A DNA stretch of 64,000 bases from the NCBI RefSeq assembly GCF_001447785.1, contig NW_015177038.1, positions 575,300 to 639,299 of the forward strand. The letters are read 5' to 3'. The position numbers were made by a program, and so were the translations under genes. Below, one piece after another: positions 17,612 through 55,504 of the stretch (position 1 is the first letter of the stretch; every line of letters begins with the position of its first letter). The stretch comes from Gekko japonicus. Lineage: Eukaryota. A model generated the notes under the pieces. That model was not told where the DNA came from and ran no database searches. It was given only the letters and a program-made list of their open reading frames with translations.

Positions 17612-18438
17612 GTTGGCGAAATGGGATAAAATGAACTTGTCATTGATGGGAAGAATATCAGTTATAAAAATGAATGTCCTACCACGTTTGATGTTCCTGT
17701 TTCAAACAATACCAATACTTAGCAAGACTGATTTGCTACTTAAGTGGCAACAAGAAATTATCAAAGTTTGTTTGGGCAGGCAAGAAACCGAGAATTAAGA
17801 TGAAAATACTTTGTGACGCCAATGAAAGAGGAGGATGGCAACTACCAAATCTTAGACTATATTATGAAGCGGTCTGTCTAACCTGGATGGAACAGTGGAT
17901 GAAACTAGAGAATGATAAGTTATTGGGGTTAGAAGGCCATGATTGTAGATTTGGTTGGCATGCATACTTATGGTATGATAAGACAAAAATGGATAGCTTT
18001 TTTAAGCTTCATGTGGTAAGAAAAGCATTGTTTTTGGTATGGATGAGATACAAAAAAGATTTTCGTGATGTAAGACCATTGTGGATTGTACCAGTAGAAG
18101 TGTTAACATCTTACTCAAGACATAGAGACAAGGATTGGTTGCCGTATAAAGACTTAATTAAAAAAAGAGGGAACAGAATGGGTAATGAAAAAGCAGAATG
18201 AAATTGAATATGAATATGAATGGTTGAAATACATGCAAATTTATGATCTTTTTAGATCAGATAAAAGAAATTATGGTTTTAGAGAGGAAAAAAATGAAAT
18301 GGAAAATGTTTGGGAGAGTGGAGGGGGAAAAAATATCTCTAAAATGTATAAAGTGTTGTTAAAATGGTATACAGAAGAGGAAACGGTGAAAGAGCAAATG
18401 ATAAAATGGGCAATAAATATGAATAAGGAAGTCTTTAT
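17612..18438 (+). mobile_element. L1 LINE ORF2 C-terminal region, 5'-truncated, two frameshifts, runs into gap
   Basis: LSLMGRISVIKMNVLPRLMFLFQTIP and ERGGWQLPNLRLYYEA motifs. Confidence 0.92.
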
Positions 18439-18765
18439 NNNNNNNNNNNNNNNNNNNNNNNNNNNNNNNNNNNNNNNNNNNNNNNNNNNNNNNNNNNNNN
18501 NNNNNNNNNNNNNNNNNNNNNNNNNNNNNNNNNNNNNNNNNNNNNNNNNNNNNNNNNNNNNNNNNNNNNNNNNNNNNNNNNNNNNNNNNNNNNNNNNNNN
18601 NNNNNNNNNNNNNNNNNNNNNNNNNNNNNNNNNNNNNNNNNNNNNNNNNNNNNNNNNNNNNNNNNNNNNNNNNNNNNNNNNNNNNNNNNNNNNNNNNNNN
18701 NNNNNNNNNNNNNNNNNNNNNNNNNNNNNNNNNNNNNNNNNNNNNNNNNNNNNNNNNNNNNNNNN
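18439..18765. other. assembly gap (327 N)
   Basis: N run. Confidence 1.
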
Positions 18766-19091
18766 CACTATTCTTGAGAAGTTTAAAAATGATCCCCTGT
18801 TGGTGTAACTTGATGTAACTTGTTATGATCTATTAATTCGTTCTATTAATTTATTTGTTCCATTGCCTTCCTTATTGTTCCTGTGTTATGCCAATAAAGG
18901 TCTATGTATATGTATATATGAGTACCAAGTGCAAACACTTACACAGGATCCCATGACTAATACAATCAACAGAGACAGCCATCCTCACCATCCAACTAAT
19001 CCCTAAATCCTATCTCCTCTGACCCCGGCACCACCCTGGTAAACTGCACTGTCTCCTTCAAAGTAATTTCGAGGGTCTAGCACCCTTCCCC

Positions 19092-19721
19092 GTCCAACAC
19101 TGAGCCACTCACACATGGAAACACAAACACAAGTGACTTTCCCAACCTCAGAAGTTGAAACCAAGCATCCTGCATATGCCCAGCTTAATCTTGCTACTCA
19201 TTACACCCCAGGCCAGCCCACCCCTGGCTCCCCAAAACATATTTAAACTGGCACTCCACACCCCAACCTTTGTACAACTCTTCTTGGGTGCCCATAAGAG
19301 TGTATCCTCGGACTCTGAGCCTTTGACACAAACTGCTGGTCGGCTATGTCCTCCTCCTGCCACGTGGATTCTGCTCACTTCAGGATCAGGTAAATATCAC
19401 CCTAATGTCCAACACTGAGCCACTCACACATGGAAACACAAACACAAGTGACTTTCCCAACCTCAGAAGTTGAAACCAAGCATCCTGCATATGCCCAGCT
19501 TAATCTTGCTACTCATTACACCCCAGGCCAGCCCACCCCTGGCTCCCCAAAACATATTTAAACTGGCACTCCACGCCCCAACCTTTGTACAACTCTTCTT
19601 GGGTGCCCATAAGAGTGTATCCTCGGACTCTGAGCCTTTGACACAAACTGCTGGTCGGCTATGTCCTCCTCCTGCCACGTGGATTCTGCTCACTTCAGGA
19701 TCAGGTAAATATCACCCTAAT
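19092..19721. repeat. 315-bp tandem duplication (2 copies)
   Basis: 19092-19406 vs 19407-19721; one substitution seen. Confidence 0.95.
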
Positions 19722-20058
19722 TTAAAACCAACCCCCTTCTTGTCACTATCGATCACCTCTCTGTTTCTTAGCTCTGTGTGTGTTGATCTGTTGTTATTAT
19801 TTTTATGTGAGTGAGTAGTGTGAACTTTGCATGTATTCACAATAAAACTCCATCCAATCAACAGTCTCTTCCTTCCACTGGTATCCCTCGCAATTTTACC
19901 CTCGTATGAATAGAGTATTAAAGAACCCTTGTACACATGTGTGCTGCCCTGCACCCAAGGCAATAGAAGCTTATAAACTCATGGCTCCTCGGTGACGATG
20001 ATGGGCAGTGGATTCAAAACAGACACGAGGGCTTCTTCAGTCAAAGAGTGATTAACGT

Positions 20059-20300: not shown

Positions 20301-20576
20301 TGTAACAATAGAAGCTTATAAACTCATGGCTCCCCGGTGACGATGATGGGCACTGGGCAGTGGATTCAAAACAGACACGAGGGCTTCTTCAGTCAAAGAG
20401 TGATTAACGTGGAATTTATGAATGTGTGAAATAGCACTAGGTGATGCTGATGCAGATTCTTGTTTATTTCCTCCATTGTGACAAACTGTCAGTTTGTTCC
20501 TGCACTTCCTGTTTGTTTTTACTAGAACAGTGTGATGGGCAGAGGCTTGCCTTTCAGAACACAGCAAGAGTCACAA

Positions 20577-21069
20577 CACACAGGAACCTATAGAAACTTG
20601 CCAATTTGTTGTGTGCACTTAATACAGCTGTGCGAAAAGGTGCACTTCTCCTCGCTGTAAGTGCATTCCCATTGATAGTATCAAGCTATCTCTGCTTCAA
20701 AGAGATTTGCTTGATGATAGCTGCCATCATCTTGTTGACTAAGATTACTGATGCAATCCATGGCATGCATTCCATTGATCTAGAGCCCAGCAAACCAGCC
20801 CAAGCATCTTGTTCACTGTACACAAGCGCAAATTTAGGCTGATGTGAGAAAATGTTGGCCTGGTGTGGAAACAAGGTCAAAACTGCAGTGAACAAGCCAT
20901 TCTGGTTGGCAGATGCATATAACATCAAGTAAGAAACAGCAAAAACCACATGATTCATGTTTACTGCCATGTTTCCCTCAACAAAATTTGCTGTGTTCCA
21001 GTCCATCTCCCCCCCAGAAAGGAACTCATCATAGCCTCCGTATAGTATTGCCCACTGACACATATAATA
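20577..21069 (-). other. TSD-flanked insert with near-intact reading frame, origin unassigned (candidate endogenous viral element or retrocopy)
   Basis: 12-bp direct repeat CAAGAGTCACAA (20565-20576 and 21070-21081); ~164 codons with one stop. Confidence 0.55.
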
Positions 21070-21191
21070 CAAGAGTCACAAGGCTTGTGTGACTCACTAG
21101 AGAAGTTCACAGGTAGGAGAGTTTGTGATCTGGTCAGTGGAAATATTAGCTGGGAACTTCATTCCTATGGAAACAGCAAAAGGAGTGTTTT

Positions 21192-29517: not shown

Positions 29518-30422
29518 GTCAGGAGCTCACCCAGCAACAAGTGCCAGAGGCCGCCTGCTGTCATCTCTGTTCCTCCCTTTTTAAATGTTCGGGGGGGACC
29601 AGAAGGGGATTTTCCACCACCACCCTGTAGACTTAAGAACATAAGAGAAAGCCATGTTGGATCAGGCCGATGGCCCATCCAGTCCAATGCTCTGTGTCAC
29701 ACAATGGCCAGAACCCACGAAACCCAGGCGCCATCAGGAGTTCCACCCACTGGGCTACCTTGAAAGTCAAGAAGGGCTCCTGTTTGTTTAAAAAACTATG
29801 TGACAGGTTCTCCTGTCCCTATGTTATACTCACAACAATCCAGTGAGGAAGGTTAGATTGAAGGCAAGTCACTGGTTCAAGGTCATCCAGGGACCCTCAT
29901 GGTGAAGTGGAGACCTGAACTTGGGTCTTCTAACTTGACTCCCTAACCACTCTTACCACACTGGCTCATGAAAATGCTATTGTTGACACCAAATGCTTTT
30001 TTCAGAATTCAAAACCCCAAAGACTGGATGTGCCCATAGAATGGTCTGGCAACACCTGAGGTTGCAGTCTTTTGCTGAAGCTAAGCAGGTGTGGATCTGC
30101 TTGGTAGCCAGGTGAGAGACCGTGGGGAGCCACACTTCAGAACAGAATATCCATATAGCAAATATTTTAAGACCGTTCTAGAGAACACAAGCATTGGGGT
30201 GCAAAGTTTCATGCCCCAAAATCACAGTGTGGTGTTTCCCAACTTTCTTCCATTCCGGGAAACCAAATGTTGTTCTCTTGAAGCTCTGTGTTTTAGTGTG
30301 TTCTGTAAGGGGAAGCCTAGGCAGGATCAGATCCAAAGTGCCATGTTGTGGGTTGGGGTGCTGCATCACTGAAGCAAAACACCCTGGAATGCTGCATCAC
30401 CCACGTGTGGATTTCTTTTCAG

Positions 30423-31852
30423 GGAGTGAGAACGAAGAGGAGAATCCAGGCGGTGTGGAGTCTCAGGTGCCTTTGTCAGGAGGCTGCGGAAGGAGTGTAT
30501 TTTGGGAATTTAAGAAAGGGGAAGCCCATGAGAAGAAGGGGAAAAGTTATCTTGGAGAAAGATGGACTAGCCCAACTTCCTACATAGAAATCCTTGGAGG
30601 TGCTCAAGACTCTGCGGCCCACCAGGGACCCAGTCCCTATAACAAGGAGCACGGGAATATCCTTACGGCAAGGCCCTCCAACCTCATTACCCGGCAGAGA
30701 CTTCATAGGAGCAAGAAGCTCCACCGGTGTGCCGAATGCGGGAGAGGCTTTGGTGTCTTTTCAAACCTCATCCGCCACCAGAGGACCCACATTGGGGGAA
30801 AACCCCACAAATGTCCCGATTGCGGGAAAGGGTTCGGACACAGCTCGGCCCTCGTCACTCACCGGCGTATCCACACGGGGGAAAAGCCGTACGCGTGCAA
30901 CGAGTGTGGGAAAAGCTTCAACGTGGTGTCCAACCTCCTGCGGCACCAGAGGAGTCACACGGGAGAGAAGCCTTACCAATGCCCTGACTGTGGGCGCTGC
31001 TGCAGCCAAAGGTCTCACCTGATCACCCACCGGCGCCTCCACACCGGGGAGAGGCCTTACCAGTGCCTGGAGTGCAGGAAAAGCTTCAACGTTAGTTCTG
31101 ACCTGATCAAGCATCGGAGAATCCACACGGGCGAGAGGCCCTACGAGTGCCGTTACTGCGGGAAGCGCTTCAGCGGCAGCTCCAACCTCATCACGCACCA
31201 GAGGCTCCACACTGGCGAGAAGCCCTACGTCTGCCCCGAGTGCGGCAAAAGCTTCACAATCAGCTCCAAGCTGATCACCCACCAGCGAATCCACGCGGCA
31301 GAGAAGCCGTTCGATTGCACAGACTGTGGGAAAAGTCGCACTGAAAGGCCCTGCCTCGCCAGGAACCAGCCGAGCCCCTACCGCCGGGAGAAACGCTTCA
31401 AATGCATTGACTGCGGGAAGAGCTTTACCACCAGCTCCTACCTCATCACCCACCAGCGGATCCACACGGGGGAGACCCCCTACATCTGTGGGGACTGTGG
31501 GAAAAGCTTCACAGTTATCTCCAACCTGGCCAGGCACCAGAGGATCCACACGGGCGAGAAGCCCTACAAGTGCCCAGACTGTGGCAGGAGCTACAACCAG
31601 CGGGCCCACCTGACGACACACCTGAGAGTCCACACAGGGGAGAAACCTTACGTCTGCTCCGACTGTGGGAAGAGTTTCAATGTCAACTCGTCCCTCACCA
31701 AGCACCGGAGAATCCACACTGGCGAGAAGCCCTACATGTGTCCCGACTGTGGGAAAACTTTCAGCCAGAGCTCCAACGTCATCACTCATCAGAAGCTCCA
31801 CCACAGTGGTAGCCTCCTTGGCGGCCCCATCAGGGTCCTTCAGATCCAATAG
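30423..31852 (+). CDS. gene B terminal exon: C2H2 zinc-finger array (12 intact + 1 degenerate finger)
   Basis: TTTCTTTTCAG acceptor in phase 1; CxxC...HxxxH repeats with TGEKPY linkers; TAG stop; spliced product 582 aa. Confidence 0.95.
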
Positions 31853-40419: not shown

Positions 40420-41266
40420 GTTGCTTGCCCTGAATTTTTTAATTTCATCTTCGATGTCTTTATTGATTGCATTTTTCTCCCGTGCTTCCTCCACAGAACG
40501 CAAGGTATAGATCATATCATTTTTCACAACACCCCTGCATGGTAGGCCAGGCCCAGAGATGAGATTTTGCTCCAGGCCACCCAGTAAGCTTCCCAGTGAA
40601 GGTGAATCCTGGTCTCTGGAAGTCATCACAGCACAGTGGCCATTTCCCTGAGTGCCGTCTAGTTCAAGCATTCTGTCAAACAACAGACTTTTCACACAGT
40701 TCATCATACTACACTTAATAACATAAGAAGAGCCCTGCTGGATCAGACCACTGGTCCATCTTGTCCAGCATCCTGTCTCACACAGTGGCCAACCCATTGC
40801 CTTGGAGGGCCGAAAAGCAAGGCACAGAGGCCGAGACCTTCCCCTCATGTTGTCTGCTTTATACACAATCTGAGATTGATGCGGAAAATTTTCACAGCTC
40901 ATCATGCAGAATCTGGATTTTTACAAAAACTCTACCAGCTGGGTAGAACAGAATTTCCAACGGTTTTGAACTTCAATGCTGGAACAGATACATGTTAAGT
41001 GAATATTGTCCCCTTTTTTTGTGGTGGCTAAAGCTAATCACAGAACTTCCCATCAGAGCGCAATACGTTTCACGTGAGCTGATAGTGCATTATTTCTGCA
41101 CCTTTCCTAAGGATCCGATCACCACTGCGACAGTGGCTATATTGAGACTGTCAGGGAATGCGCTTCCACCGAGATCTTGGTTGGCAGCTGTTTTGGCATG
41201 GTCTTTGCACTTAGTAAAAGCTGAATTTCATTTGCAGTTCTGGGAGTGTGGAGAAGAATTTAAAAA

Positions 41267-42046
41267 ATGGAGGACCAGGACCCAACAGGATCCAAAGCAA
41301 AAGAGAAACCGGAGGCAGATCGCCCCATCGTCCATGTTAGCACAGCTGGAGACGTTCCAACAGAAACGGGTCCCCAGGACACTGAACGGGCACCAGATGA
41401 GGTGGCTTCAATAGAGACCAAACAGACAACCCCCGGGGAGGCTCCTCGAAAAGCTCAACAGGTACTGGAGGAGGTGGTCCTGCCAGAGACTGATCAGGCT
41501 CTGGAGGAAAGGACCCAGCAGCAGGACTTCCAGAAGGCAGCCAAATCTCGGAGGAAACCTCTGGTGCCTACCCGGTGGGATAACACAAAAACATTTCAGA
41601 CCTCCTTCCAGAGAACAGCTGACGCCGTCCACAGGGCTGAAGAAGACAGGGTGACTCGAACTCCGACAGATCTCAGCGGAGAAGCTACAGAAGCCTACAG
41701 CAGCTTGGGCCCCTCCCGGCAAACAAAGGATGAGCTCCTGGATGGAGAGGCCATCCGTCTGGAGCTACGGCGCCAGCAGTTCAGGCAGTTCTGCTACCTG
41801 GAGGCTGAGGGGCCCCGGGAGGTTTGCAGCCAGCTCCGGGACCTTTGCTACCGATGGCTGCAGCCAGAGAGACACACCAAAGAGCAGATCTTGGAGTTCC
41901 TGATCTTAGAGCAGTTCTTGGCCATTCTGCCGCAGGAAATGCAGCTCTGGGTCAGGAAATGGGACCCGGAGACCTGTGCCCAGGCCGTGACCCTGGTGGA
42001 GGTTTTTGCCTTGAAACTGCAAGAGAAGGAGAGATGGGACCAGCAG
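41267..42046 (+). CDS. gene C first coding exon with SCAN domain
   Basis: [55 protein letters not shown]; acceptor at 41237; CAG|GTGAGT phase-0 donor. Confidence 0.95.
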
Positions 42047-42362
42047 GTGAGTGTAGCTTATAGTGGCAATCCTGGCAAGCCCTGTAGCGAAATGCCCACA
42101 GCTGTGTGATTGTAGACCTGAGATCTATGAGTAGAGACCCACTGTTGGTATCATTCTTCCTCTTCTTAGAAGACTAACTAGACTGGGCTGGAAAACTGGT
42201 CCCATTTCCTTGCTGCCTGGCTTTAGTAGGGTTTTGAGCTGGGCCAGGGGGCTGCTCTTGGTTATGGGTGATGGTGGCAGAATTTGGCTTCACTCTTCTG
42301 GGGTGTTTTCTCTCTGAACCTTCTGGCCGTGTCCTAAACCGTGTCCCTGTTTTTTAATTCAG

Positions 42363-44021: not shown

Positions 44022-44324
44022 GTTATAATAATTAATAGCAGGAGGGAAGACAGCATAGTATAGCTCAATCTCATCAGATCTAGGAAGCTAAGCAGGGTTG
44101 GTATTTGGAAGGGAGAATACCTTGGCTCACAACCTGTAGTCTTGAGTGAGCTGGTCCAGTTGGACTCCAGGCCAGCCCTTGCATTGTACTGAATTTTAAT
44201 ATTGTTGCTGGTTATTTGCTTGTTTCATTATATTTGTGGTGTTTTCTTGTAAGATGCTTTGGGCCCTGCTAGGGAGAAAAGTAGAATGTAAATACTTAAA
44301 TCAGTGAATCCATTCTTCCAGCAG

Positions 44325-45313
44325 GTGATGTCCACATGAGTGAGAACAAAGAAGCGAATCTTCAGCCAGAAGGACCAGAGCAAGTGGATCCCAACCAGGT
44401 GTCGCTGGAAAAGGGCAAAGCAAAAGTCTTCCTGTTTCCCAAGATGGAAGGAGTGCCTGAAAGTCAGCAAGCAGTGAAAGACTGTGAGATTACTGGAATG
44501 GAAGAGACGTCTGGAAATCAGTGGCAACAGGGAAACCACCCAGAACAGGCAGTGGAAAAAAACTATCTTTCTGAAAGGGAGAAAAGTTTAAGTGAAAGCA
44601 CTTTGCAAGAGGGACTTGACCTAGATAGGAGAAAAAGGACAGGAATGGAGAGTGGGAAAAGCTCCAATCAGAGTGCTGACCCTCTTAAAAACTTGAATGT
44701 CCAGACTGGGAAAAGGCCATACAAGTGCTCCTATTGTGGGAAAATCTTCAACCATGCCTCAGCCCACTTGGTCCATGAGAGGATCCACACGGGAGAGAAA
44801 CCATATAACTGCCTGGAGTGTGGGCAGAACTTCAGTCGCAGATCACACCTTACCAGACACCACAGAATCCACACAGGGGAGAAACCGCATACCTGCTCCA
44901 AGTGCGGGAAGAACTTCAGTCGGAGATCACACCTTATTGAGCATGAGAGGACCCATACAGGAGAGAAACCATTTGCATGCTCCACCTGTGGGAAAAGTTT
45001 CAATTACCGGTCCCTCCTCAAAGAACACTCAAGGATCCACACAGGAGAGAAGCCATACAAATGCTCAGACTGTGGAAAGAGCTTCAATCGAAGAGAGAGC
45101 TTTATCATCCATGAGCGGACTCACACAGGGGAGAAGCCATATGAGTGCCTAGACTGTGGGAAAAGATTCAGTCAGCGATCAAACATTACTACCCATGAGA
45201 AAACTCACATGGGAGAGGGAAAATATAAATGTGCAGAGTGCGGGAAAAGCTTCTGCAATTCCACTAGCCTCCTTAGACACCAGAAAATCCATGCAGAGGA
45301 AAAGCCATGTTAA
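44325..45313 (+). CDS. gene C terminal exon: 7 C2H2 zinc fingers
   Basis: TTCTTCCAGCAG acceptor in phase 1; seven fingers; TAA stop; spliced product 626 aa. Confidence 0.95.
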
Positions 45314-53180: not shown

Positions 53181-53858
53181 CGTAACCCAAGAAAGGGGCA
53201 AACAGCCCCTCCCCAGCCATCTCTGCTTTGGAAAATGGCACGGGAGGACATCCTGAAGCCCCTTCTCCCCTCTCGCAGTGTTCACAAGCCCCTGTGAGCA
53301 ACAGGCATTTATTTATTGTGATTTATATCCCACCCTACCCTGCAAGCAGGCTCAGGGTAGCTCACATCACATCATCAAAGACAATTTAAAACATCAGTAA
53401 TCAGCGCCATATAAATAAGGTTAAAATTTAAATAATAATCTAAGTTCCTGATTGACAGTTTGGCAATTGGTGTAATTCAGTGCACACTAGTCTCATGCTA
53501 GAAGGTTGATGGATCAGGATAGATCAAGCCGAGTCCCCCCATTGTACATGTGACTGCAATCTGGTTTTGAGTCACATGCATTGTTTAGCTATACCCAAAA
53601 GACTCCCTCCTTCTGCTCCCATATTCTGTGTTTGTGAACATCCCAGAGGTATCCAATTGGTCTACATACATTTGCTGTTGCTGGCCTGTATACCTTTTGG
53701 TATGACCCAGCAAGATTTTTATGTCAGAGGGTGTGAATGTATATTAAGGAACAGCATATAGTTGCTTTGGTGCAGGCTTTCAGCCAATCCAATTTTAGCA
53801 ATGTTGGCCTTTGGTGTAAGAAGCAATTCACAGCTAGATTCTTTCTTTGTCTGAGCAG

Positions 53859-55504
53859 ATGATGAGCTGCTACATGAGGACAAGGAGGAGAGTTCTCAGC
53901 GGGAAAGTCCAGATTGTACAGAACCCCATGGGATGCTGTTGGGGAAGTCCCATGTCTCCCAACTGGGAAACACCCGTGAGAATCAGAATGGTAGAGTGCC
54001 ACAGCAGGAGTCTTCCTCAGACGACACATGGTGTAAACTCTCTCCTGGTCAAGAAAGGATCATTAAGCTGAATGCATCGTTAATTCAGGAAACAATATGC
54101 AAAAGAAAGCAAGAGCATGTGCATTCTAACTATGGGAAAGCTTTCACTCAGAGCGCCTGCCTTATTGGTTGCCAGATAAAACGTGCAGCAGGAAGGCCCT
54201 ATCCATGTGCTGAGTGTGGGAAAAGCTTCAATAAGAGCTCACACCTCACTGTGCATGAGAGAATCCACACAGGTGAGAAACCCTATGGATGTGCAGAGTG
54301 TGGCAAAGGCTTCTGTAGCAGTTCTAAGCTAATTTCACATCAGAGAATTCACACTGGAGAAAAACCATGTTTGTGTGCTGATTGCGGCAGGAGCTTCTAT
54401 TCCACCTCTGAACTCAGCAGACATTGGAAAATTCACACTGGAGAAAAACCCTATGTCTGTGACGAGTGCAGAAAAAGCTTCTCCAGCATCTCAGACCTCA
54501 GCAGACATCAGAGAATCCACACGGGTGAGCGATCTTATGAATGTCCCAGTTGTGGGAGAGGCTTCACCCAGAAATCACACATGATTACTCATCAGAGAAT
54601 CCACACTGGAGAAAAACCATTCAGGTGCCCAGAGTGTGGAGAAAGTTTCAGTATTAAGTCAGGTCTACAAAGTCATCAGCGAGTACACACGTCAGAAAAG
54701 CCTTATGTCTGTGTGGTGTGTGAGAAGAGCTTTGGTTGGGCCTCTGTTTTGCTCAGGCATCAAAGGATTCACACAGGAGAGAAACCCTATATGTGCCCTG
54801 ACTGTGGGGAAAGCTTCACTCAGAGCTCACACCTTAGCAGTCATAAGCGAGTCCACATGACTGAGAAGCCTTATGCATGTGTGGAGTGTGGGAAAAGCTT
54901 TAGGAGGACCTCAGAGCTCATTGCTCACCAGAAAACTCACATGGAGGAGAAGCCGTACCCATGCAGTCAGTGTTCAAAAAGTTTCAGTAAAAGCTCAGAA
55001 CTCCTGGCACATCAAAGAAGCCACATGGGAGAAAAGCCCTTTTCCTGCACCGTGTGCAATAAAAACTTCATTAGAAGTTCACAGCTAATTGCACACCAAA
55101 GAATTCATACAGGGGAAAAACCTTACGTGTGCAGTGAGTGTGGTAAAAGTTTCTGTTACACATCAAATCTGAACAGGCATAAAAAAATCCATACAGGGGA
55201 GAGAGCCTACAAATGCTCCACCTGCGGGAAAAGATTCTCCCAGAGATCAAACTTGACCAAACATGAGAGAATCCACACAGGTGAGAATCTTTATAAATGC
55301 AATGACTGTGGACAAAGCTTTACCGTTAGATCAGGCCTCCTTCGCCATCAGCAGGTTCATGCAGGGGAGCCATCTGCCCTTTTGAGTAGCACAGAAGAGA
55401 AACCTCAAGCATATCTCAAAACTCGAAGTGAAAACCTTCACTTGGAGCCCAGCAGTGCTACTAACAAAGCCAAGAATTCACTTGAGAGTGAGCTGTCACC
55501 ATAA
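53859..55504 (+). CDS. gene D terminal exon: 14 C2H2 zinc fingers
   Basis: CTTTCTTTGTCTGAGCAG acceptor in phase 1; 14 fingers; TAA stop; spliced product 557 aa. Confidence 0.95.

Follow-up and report, generated by a model that had tools for sequence, protein, structure and literature searches.

A single-copy, coding-like insert between 12-bp direct repeats in the Gekko japonicus genome behaves like a tailless virus-like insertion

Virus-like insertions lacking homology to any known virus were reportedly found in the human genome by Kojima et al. 2021 (PNAS), with poly(A) tails and empty orthologous sites. The insert described here is like them in having been spotted by a sequence signature together with a putative target-site duplication (TSD) and not by viral similarity; unlike them it is reptilian and tailless, and its reading frame is nearly intact. 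Endogenous viral elements (EVEs) of beny-like and chuvirus-like origin have been catalogued in lizards, including TMV-like coat fragments of about 450 bp in lacertids, and Gekko is represented in the part of that catalogue used here by five rows, 0.2–1.2 kb in size, all with viral best hits (Barreat and Katzourakis 2024, PMC11521997). Our insert is, like these squamate EVEs, a short, decayed, coding-like fragment, but for the catalogue rows examined the best hit is clearly viral (E 1e-11 or better) whereas the insert has no viral hit, and its coordinates are absent from the five Gekko rows, for which the assembly may differ. EBLN and EBLX/P are TSD-flanked copies of viral RNA made by LINEs, some of them invisible to tBLASTn (bioRxiv 10.1101/2022.05.06.490909). 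The insert resembles such endogenous bornavirus-like elements in its TSD-like repeats and as a putative LINE-made copy; EBLN and EBLX/P have transcription signals and poly(A) and comprise whole mRNAs, whereas the insert is internal and tailless and gave no match to BDV_P40. A further parallel is with tailless retropseudogenes, which are TSD-flanked, internally primed RNA copies (Noll et al. 2015, PMC5322556). The insert likewise lies between TSD-like repeats without a tail, but the retropseudogenes derive from host RNA and have the target TT/WAAAAWW, and neither feature was found at the insert. A literature search, which cannot exclude an earlier account, returned no description of the locus.

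The window analysed is a stretch of 64,000 nucleotides of G. japonicus DNA (contig G000:C17328 of our genome set). A sequence-only reading of the window had proposed a 493-bp insert bounded on both sides by an identical 12-mer, and this was borne out (Table 1); the 12-mer has only two exact sites in the window when both strands are checked. The proposed minus-strand frame does cross the insert, running from 21069 to 20578 through 164 codons with a single stop, and the other five frames contain 7–10 stops each. As in an internal fragment, the frame neither begins with a start codon nor ends with a stop; the nearest in-frame stops beyond the insert are at 21078 and 20556, 3 and 8 codons past the ends. 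Its 127-codon open stretch encodes a peptide of low charge, rich in Ala, Asn and Met, with two moderately hydrophobic segments. Also as first described, poly(A), terminal inverted repeats (TIRs) and LTRs are absent at the insert ends and there is no intron, while a small palindrome, GAGTCACA/TGTGACTC, is present at 21073–21080/21088–21095. To judge from its sequence, this inverted repeat would form a small hairpin at the putative pre-insertion site. The terminal inverted repeats and multiple copies that mark a DNA transposon or MITE were not found for the insert, and the 12-bp direct repeat is likely to be a TSD.

Table 1. Coordinates of the insert and adjoining features in the window
Feature	Position	Strand	Basis or remark
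Left 12-bp direct repeat CAAGAGTCACAA	20565..20576	.	Sequence; runs X1, X2 list no difference here
Single-copy insert, 493 bp; 164-codon frame end to end	20577..21069	-	
Open stretch, 127 codons, 5′ part of frame	20689..21069	-	ORF reading, composition
Only in-frame stop codon	20686..20688	-	No difference in runs X1, X2, both covering it
36 codons past stop, same frame	20578..20685	-	
Right 12-bp direct repeat CAAGAGTCACAA	21070..21081	.	Sequence
8-bp inverted repeat, 7-nt spacer, overlaps right repeat	21073..21095	.	Sequence
TTT, 11–13 nt upstream of left repeat	20552..20554	+	Loosely like RTE target signature; one case, weak

The window lies within a cluster of SCAN/C2H2 zinc-finger genes, and exons of such genes are the neighbours of the insert. 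Parts of the cluster occupy 30182–31852, 41264–42109, 44300–45313 and 53855–55504, with SCAN confirmed by Pfam, and about 200 kb farther upstream there are ORFs that by eye resemble olfactory receptors. The copy-number check suggested with the sequence-only reading showed that the insert is single-copy in the genome, as are both its flanks; the same DNA search recovers repeat copies down to approximately 80% identity. No parent copy was found in the gecko's own genome by DNA or protein search, within the limits of a fragmented assembly (2.49 Gb in 191,500 contigs), and a sensitive local search covering 298 kb of the contig did not reveal a paralogous empty site. A second-copy candidate at G000:C4053 (E 0.35–0.67) was rejected: it belongs to a stretch of high-copy repeat, and at the DNA level it is not similar to the insert.

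The insert was also recovered from DNA runs of other individuals, in which it is about 2% diverged. Two of these runs, X1 and X2, come from one study and X5 from another. In X2 one contig extends across both junctions, in X1 two contigs cover them, and in X5 two raw reads fall on the left part of the insert. Within the insert, each of the contig sets X1 and X2 departs from the window at 11 substituted positions and by an in-frame length difference of 3 nt. A joint skipping the insert was found in none of the three DNA runs, whose contigs drop rare alleles. As expected of an EVE, the insert is thus integrated between host flanks, and this in several individuals; no host parent gene was found within the limits of the fragmented assembly. 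The runs listed as containing the stretch include no RNA run, and in RNA run X4 no reads fell on the insert, in a search that covered about 3% of the run and had no positive control. Differences between individuals were also seen around the insert. To the left of 20416, X1 and X2 carry a short tandem tail in place of the window sequence, which we take to resemble the end of a CR1-type LINE; as the sequence differs there, the window left of 20416 may be rearranged or misassembled. Positions 19961–20058 and 20306–20410 form a near-perfect local duplication. On the other side, about 190 unrelated bases follow 21130 in X1, and X2 follows the window; this is likely to be a polymorphic insertion at 21130, 50 bp to the right of the site.

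One of 12 distinct substitutions in the insert was synonymous, against 20.9% expected neutrally (p=0.48), and the same 12 substitutions are incompatible with a dN/dS of 0.3 at p=0.006. There is therefore no purifying selection on the insert, which evolves neutrally now, and its divergence is not significantly different from that of the flanks (p 0.07 and 0.57). From the single stop, the lack of a frameshift and the identity of the repeats, with assumed indel rates, decay was estimated at approximately 2–3%, with a 95% upper bound of 5.5–7%. The insert is young, and at so low a level of decay our searches should have picked up a conserved cellular gene or a common viral one. At codon junctions, CpG occurs once against 9.3 expected and UpA 8 times against 15.2 expected; the CpG and TpA ratios are 0.18 and 0.62 in the insert and 0.26 and 0.69 in the window background. 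This poverty exceeds what such decay easily explains, and suggests that the source was already poor in CpG and UpA. Low CpG and UpA are typical of vertebrate genes and of RNA viruses of vertebrates alike, so that the bias is no discriminator between a virus and a host gene; the host background is poor too. Charged residues make up 12% of the insert peptide, lower than in all of five sets of viral structural proteins (17–22%), a point against a viral source.

Searches for a source covered sequence, profile and structure databases. Scans of the insert frame with Pfam, NCBIfam and PHROGs gave no significant match, with Pfam CSG2 and Microp_apicomplexa_19 (E 0.008–0.04) and phrog_36027 (E 0.07) falling far below the cut-off. 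Nor was there a significant match in a sequence search of the PDB, or in a 5.8-billion protein set queried with three length and region settings, or in IMG/VR and metagenome contigs. Among 1.84 billion protein-cluster representatives there was no vertebrate relative; the sole match was P0001 (E 5.5e-6), a repetitive bacterial cadherin protein of 3281 aa, which we rejected because 11 weak stretches add up to its score. Rfam returned one match only, at E 0.43. AlphaFold single-sequence models of the peptide reached a pLDDT of 39–40, and with such an unreliable model as query Foldseek searches of BFVD and the PDB yielded nothing at E 0.001. The best BFVD fold match (E 1.6) was to a 137-aa orchid beny-like virus protein and was set aside, as this protein is a hydrophobic ORF2 and not a coat protein (PMC9781952).

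The insert peptide was also compared with profiles of our own, drawn from 374 viral loci that had been selected with motifs. Family labels of these loci are our own; no chuvirus N was identified among them, and a chuvirus source is covered by the general searches of the 1.84 billion representatives and the 5.8-billion set. The peptide scored -0.3 bits with a tobamovirus-type coat profile (28 coats) and -1.9 bits with a divergent TMV-like coat profile (9 coats), and all 18 mononegavirus-like profiles (120 loci) gave scores below 0 bits that were equalled by shuffles. Toti-like (Ghabrivirales) capsid profiles, 16 + 7 in number, likewise gave only scores below 0 bits, and in BLASTP searches of the 1618 ORFs of the 374 loci the peptide and its reversed version performed alike. 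Several motif resemblances were rejected on these results: to a TMV-like coat (Pfam scan and both coat profiles negative), to bornavirus or rhabdovirus N (Pfam scan and the 18 profiles negative) and to the L-A totivirus capsid (toti-like profiles negative). For similarities noticed by eye to hantavirus N, rotavirus VP6 and hepacivirus NS4B, the Pfam scan was the sole coverage and was negative. These searches could be escaped by homologues near 20–25% identity. In the gecko's own genome, a search with Viral_helicase1 found nothing, and searches with TMV_coat, BDV_P40 and RdRP_2 also found nothing, the control being silent too. IMG/VR contigs L051, L055, L063, L072, L076–L078, L091, L105, L108, L115 and L117 encode divergent TMV-like coat proteins; they had been retrieved with a hepe/beny-type RdRp motif.

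The earlier statement that no vertebrate or transposable-element protein is recognisable here thus agrees with our searches, in which neither known host genes nor known transposons were matched. Its proposal of an RNA-virus capsid or nucleoprotein gene was not supported: viral homology was not found, and the capsid and nucleoprotein leads failed in the profiles. The broader idea of a foreign coding fragment fared better, in that the insert is young, single-copy, coding-derived in appearance and parentless in its genome, and fell short in that no viral homology accompanied it. As viral homology was tested for and not found, membership among the EVEs is not established; the insert behaves like a tailless, TSD-flanked virus-like insertion. 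The reading that we favour, and to which we give about even weight, is that an internal piece of RNA from a vertebrate-adapted RNA virus, one belonging to an unsampled lineage, was retrocopied without a tail, probably by a LINE (RTE or L1). The viral origin of the insert is something that we infer and do not demonstrate.

A host-lineage source is the alternative that survives best, and we think it unlikely. The insert would then be a tailless retrocopy or remnant of a coding sequence whose parent is lost or missing, either a gene that is specific to the lineage and evolves fast or an ORF from a transposon that was rare and has died out. A TSD and a coding signature are expected equally from such a source, CpG/UpA poverty suits host genes just as well, a parent could be missed in an assembly of so many contigs, and transposon gag/ORF1 proteins can escape Pfam, as did 2 of the 10 control loci described below. 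Against it, there is no second copy at the DNA or protein level, the E=0.35 match being a high-copy repeat, and no vertebrate relative appeared among the 1.84 billion representatives despite a decay of only a few per cent.

The favoured reading, like that of a host-lineage source, supposes that the insert was once coding. The distinctly doubtful alternative is chance, an old, unique non-coding stretch with a stop-poor frame between two unrelated 12-mers. Repeats of this length are common, there being 21 exact repeats of at least 12 bp spaced 200–1000 bp apart in the non-exonic window. The eight stops that the sequence-only reading expected by chance overlook the choice of the best of six frames: with that choice, at most one stop was found at 103 of 2068 window positions, in 7 of 1048 GC-matched stretches (about 1% of matched 492-bp stretches) and in 64 of 5000 Markov simulations, and is therefore uncommon, not rare. 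No homologue was found anywhere and no empty site was seen, as would also be expected of chance, and a caveat against the favoured reading is that a scan draws such coincidences from very many windows. It is the combination of features, not any single one, that makes the insert stand out. The amino-acid composition of its frame is more protein-like than that of 99.7% of 7608 non-coding window frames, and lies at the 20th percentile among 495 real viral segments. Its TG/CA excess is greater than in 99.6% of 1268 windows and the 3-base codon periodicity of its frame greater than in 96% of windows, so that composition, periodicity and dinucleotide shift, against the chance reading, coincide in one frame. 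The maximal coding-like segment, located without use of the repeat positions, runs from 21051 to 20560 in the same frame (464 codons scored), and its ends fall within 18 bp of both repeats. The coding score is +13.9 bits over the insert, compared with -23.9 and -15.6 bits over the 150 codons on either side.

A control set of host DNA argues further against chance. After masking of self-repeats, 590 kb of the 866 kb scored was left, giving 1162 windows. At most one stop was found in 114 of these, of which 27 in addition equalled or surpassed the insert in how protein-like their composition is. The 27 windows represent 10 loci, eight of which contain a Pfam gene or retroelement domain (one below the cut-off); the remaining two are long ORFs that look retroelement-like by eye. 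Clearly non-coding windows passing both tests numbered, by reading, 0 of 1162. Three of the 21 repeat pairs with a unique interior are equally stop-poor, the insert itself included; one of the other two lies within a LINE ORF2 and one is not protein-like, and 0 of the 20 other pairs are clearly non-coding and pass both tests. Because the threshold came from the insert itself, the control is supportive and provides no p-value. From its protein-like composition, the position of the segment ends near the repeats and the occurrence of passing controls in genes and transposon ORFs, the 493-bp stretch looks coding-derived.

On the favoured reading, a LINE reverse transcriptase of the RTE or L1 clade would have used a staggered nick to prime internally on foreign RNA, of which it copied about 0.5 kb; repair would have duplicated 12 bp of target, and the fragment, a fossil without function, would then have spread through the population. 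LINE involvement is likely, judged from repeat length and analogy. TSDs are reported to be most commonly 10–12 bp for RTE and to range from 7 to 18 bp for L1 (PMC6007223), and the 12-bp repeat falls within both ranges, with no TIR, LTR or intron, as in a tailless retrocopy. Tailless retrocopies are reported from the green anole (PMC5322556). A 3′ poly(A) and the L1 target TT/AAAA are absent at the insert in either orientation. The RTE target signature, a T run about 10 nt upstream and a TSD starting with A or T, is fitted only loosely: on the plus strand there is TTT at -13 to -11, yet the TSD begins with C, and on the minus strand the TSD begins with T, yet there is no T run at -10. Slighter in probability than the alternatives above is capture at the DNA level, with foreign DNA (from an unsampled DNA virus or a free cDNA) end-joined into a staggered break at the palindrome and no LINE priming, which would account for the missing tail and L1 target motif, for both ends lying inside the reading frame and for the 8-bp palindrome at the target, but which sits poorly with a clean 12-bp duplication without deletion, the usual outcome for target-primed reverse transcription (PMC5322556), and with the failure of searches in which vertebrate DNA-virus genes should usually be detectable.

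Published vertebrate EVE catalogues rest on similarity. To our knowledge, dsRNA and segmented negative-sense virus groups have almost no vertebrate germline record. It is conceivable, as a long shot, that the insert is a fossil of a reptile RNA virus of one of these kinds (dsRNA, or segmented negative-sense, for example amnoonvirus-like), a tailless RTE copy invisible to similarity screens. In one vertebrate EVE catalogue, dsRNA and segmented negative-sense viruses are reported to have left no EVEs, and its authors, citing Kojima et al. 2021, point out that EVEs without homology would escape such a screen (Blanco-Melo et al., PMC11089739); a single nairovirus EVE is reported in another (PMC11521997). 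Reptiles are known to carry very divergent RNA viruses, among them a divergent amnoonvirus-like virus of a gecko (PMC7354609). If the favoured reading is true, the insert records a vertebrate-associated virus lineage never sampled, and a TSD combined with a coding signature can reveal homology-free viral fossils in reptiles; should chance or a lost host gene account for it, the insert is of little importance.

Other elements were noted in and near the window. Decayed LINE ORF2-like frames, recognised by eye and without a Pfam match, lie at 17692–18830 and are broken by an assembly gap. A tandem duplication with a 315-bp period occupies 19092–19721 and includes exact stretches of up to 146 bp. 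Elsewhere on the contig, two flavin amine-oxidase ORF stretches (L370:5216–6061 and L404:9349–9840) are separated by about 200 kb. An apparently intact two-ORF LINE is found approximately 45 kb upstream of the window (L374:2899–7397); its first ORF is of 409 aa and its second, for endonuclease/RT, of 1093 aa.
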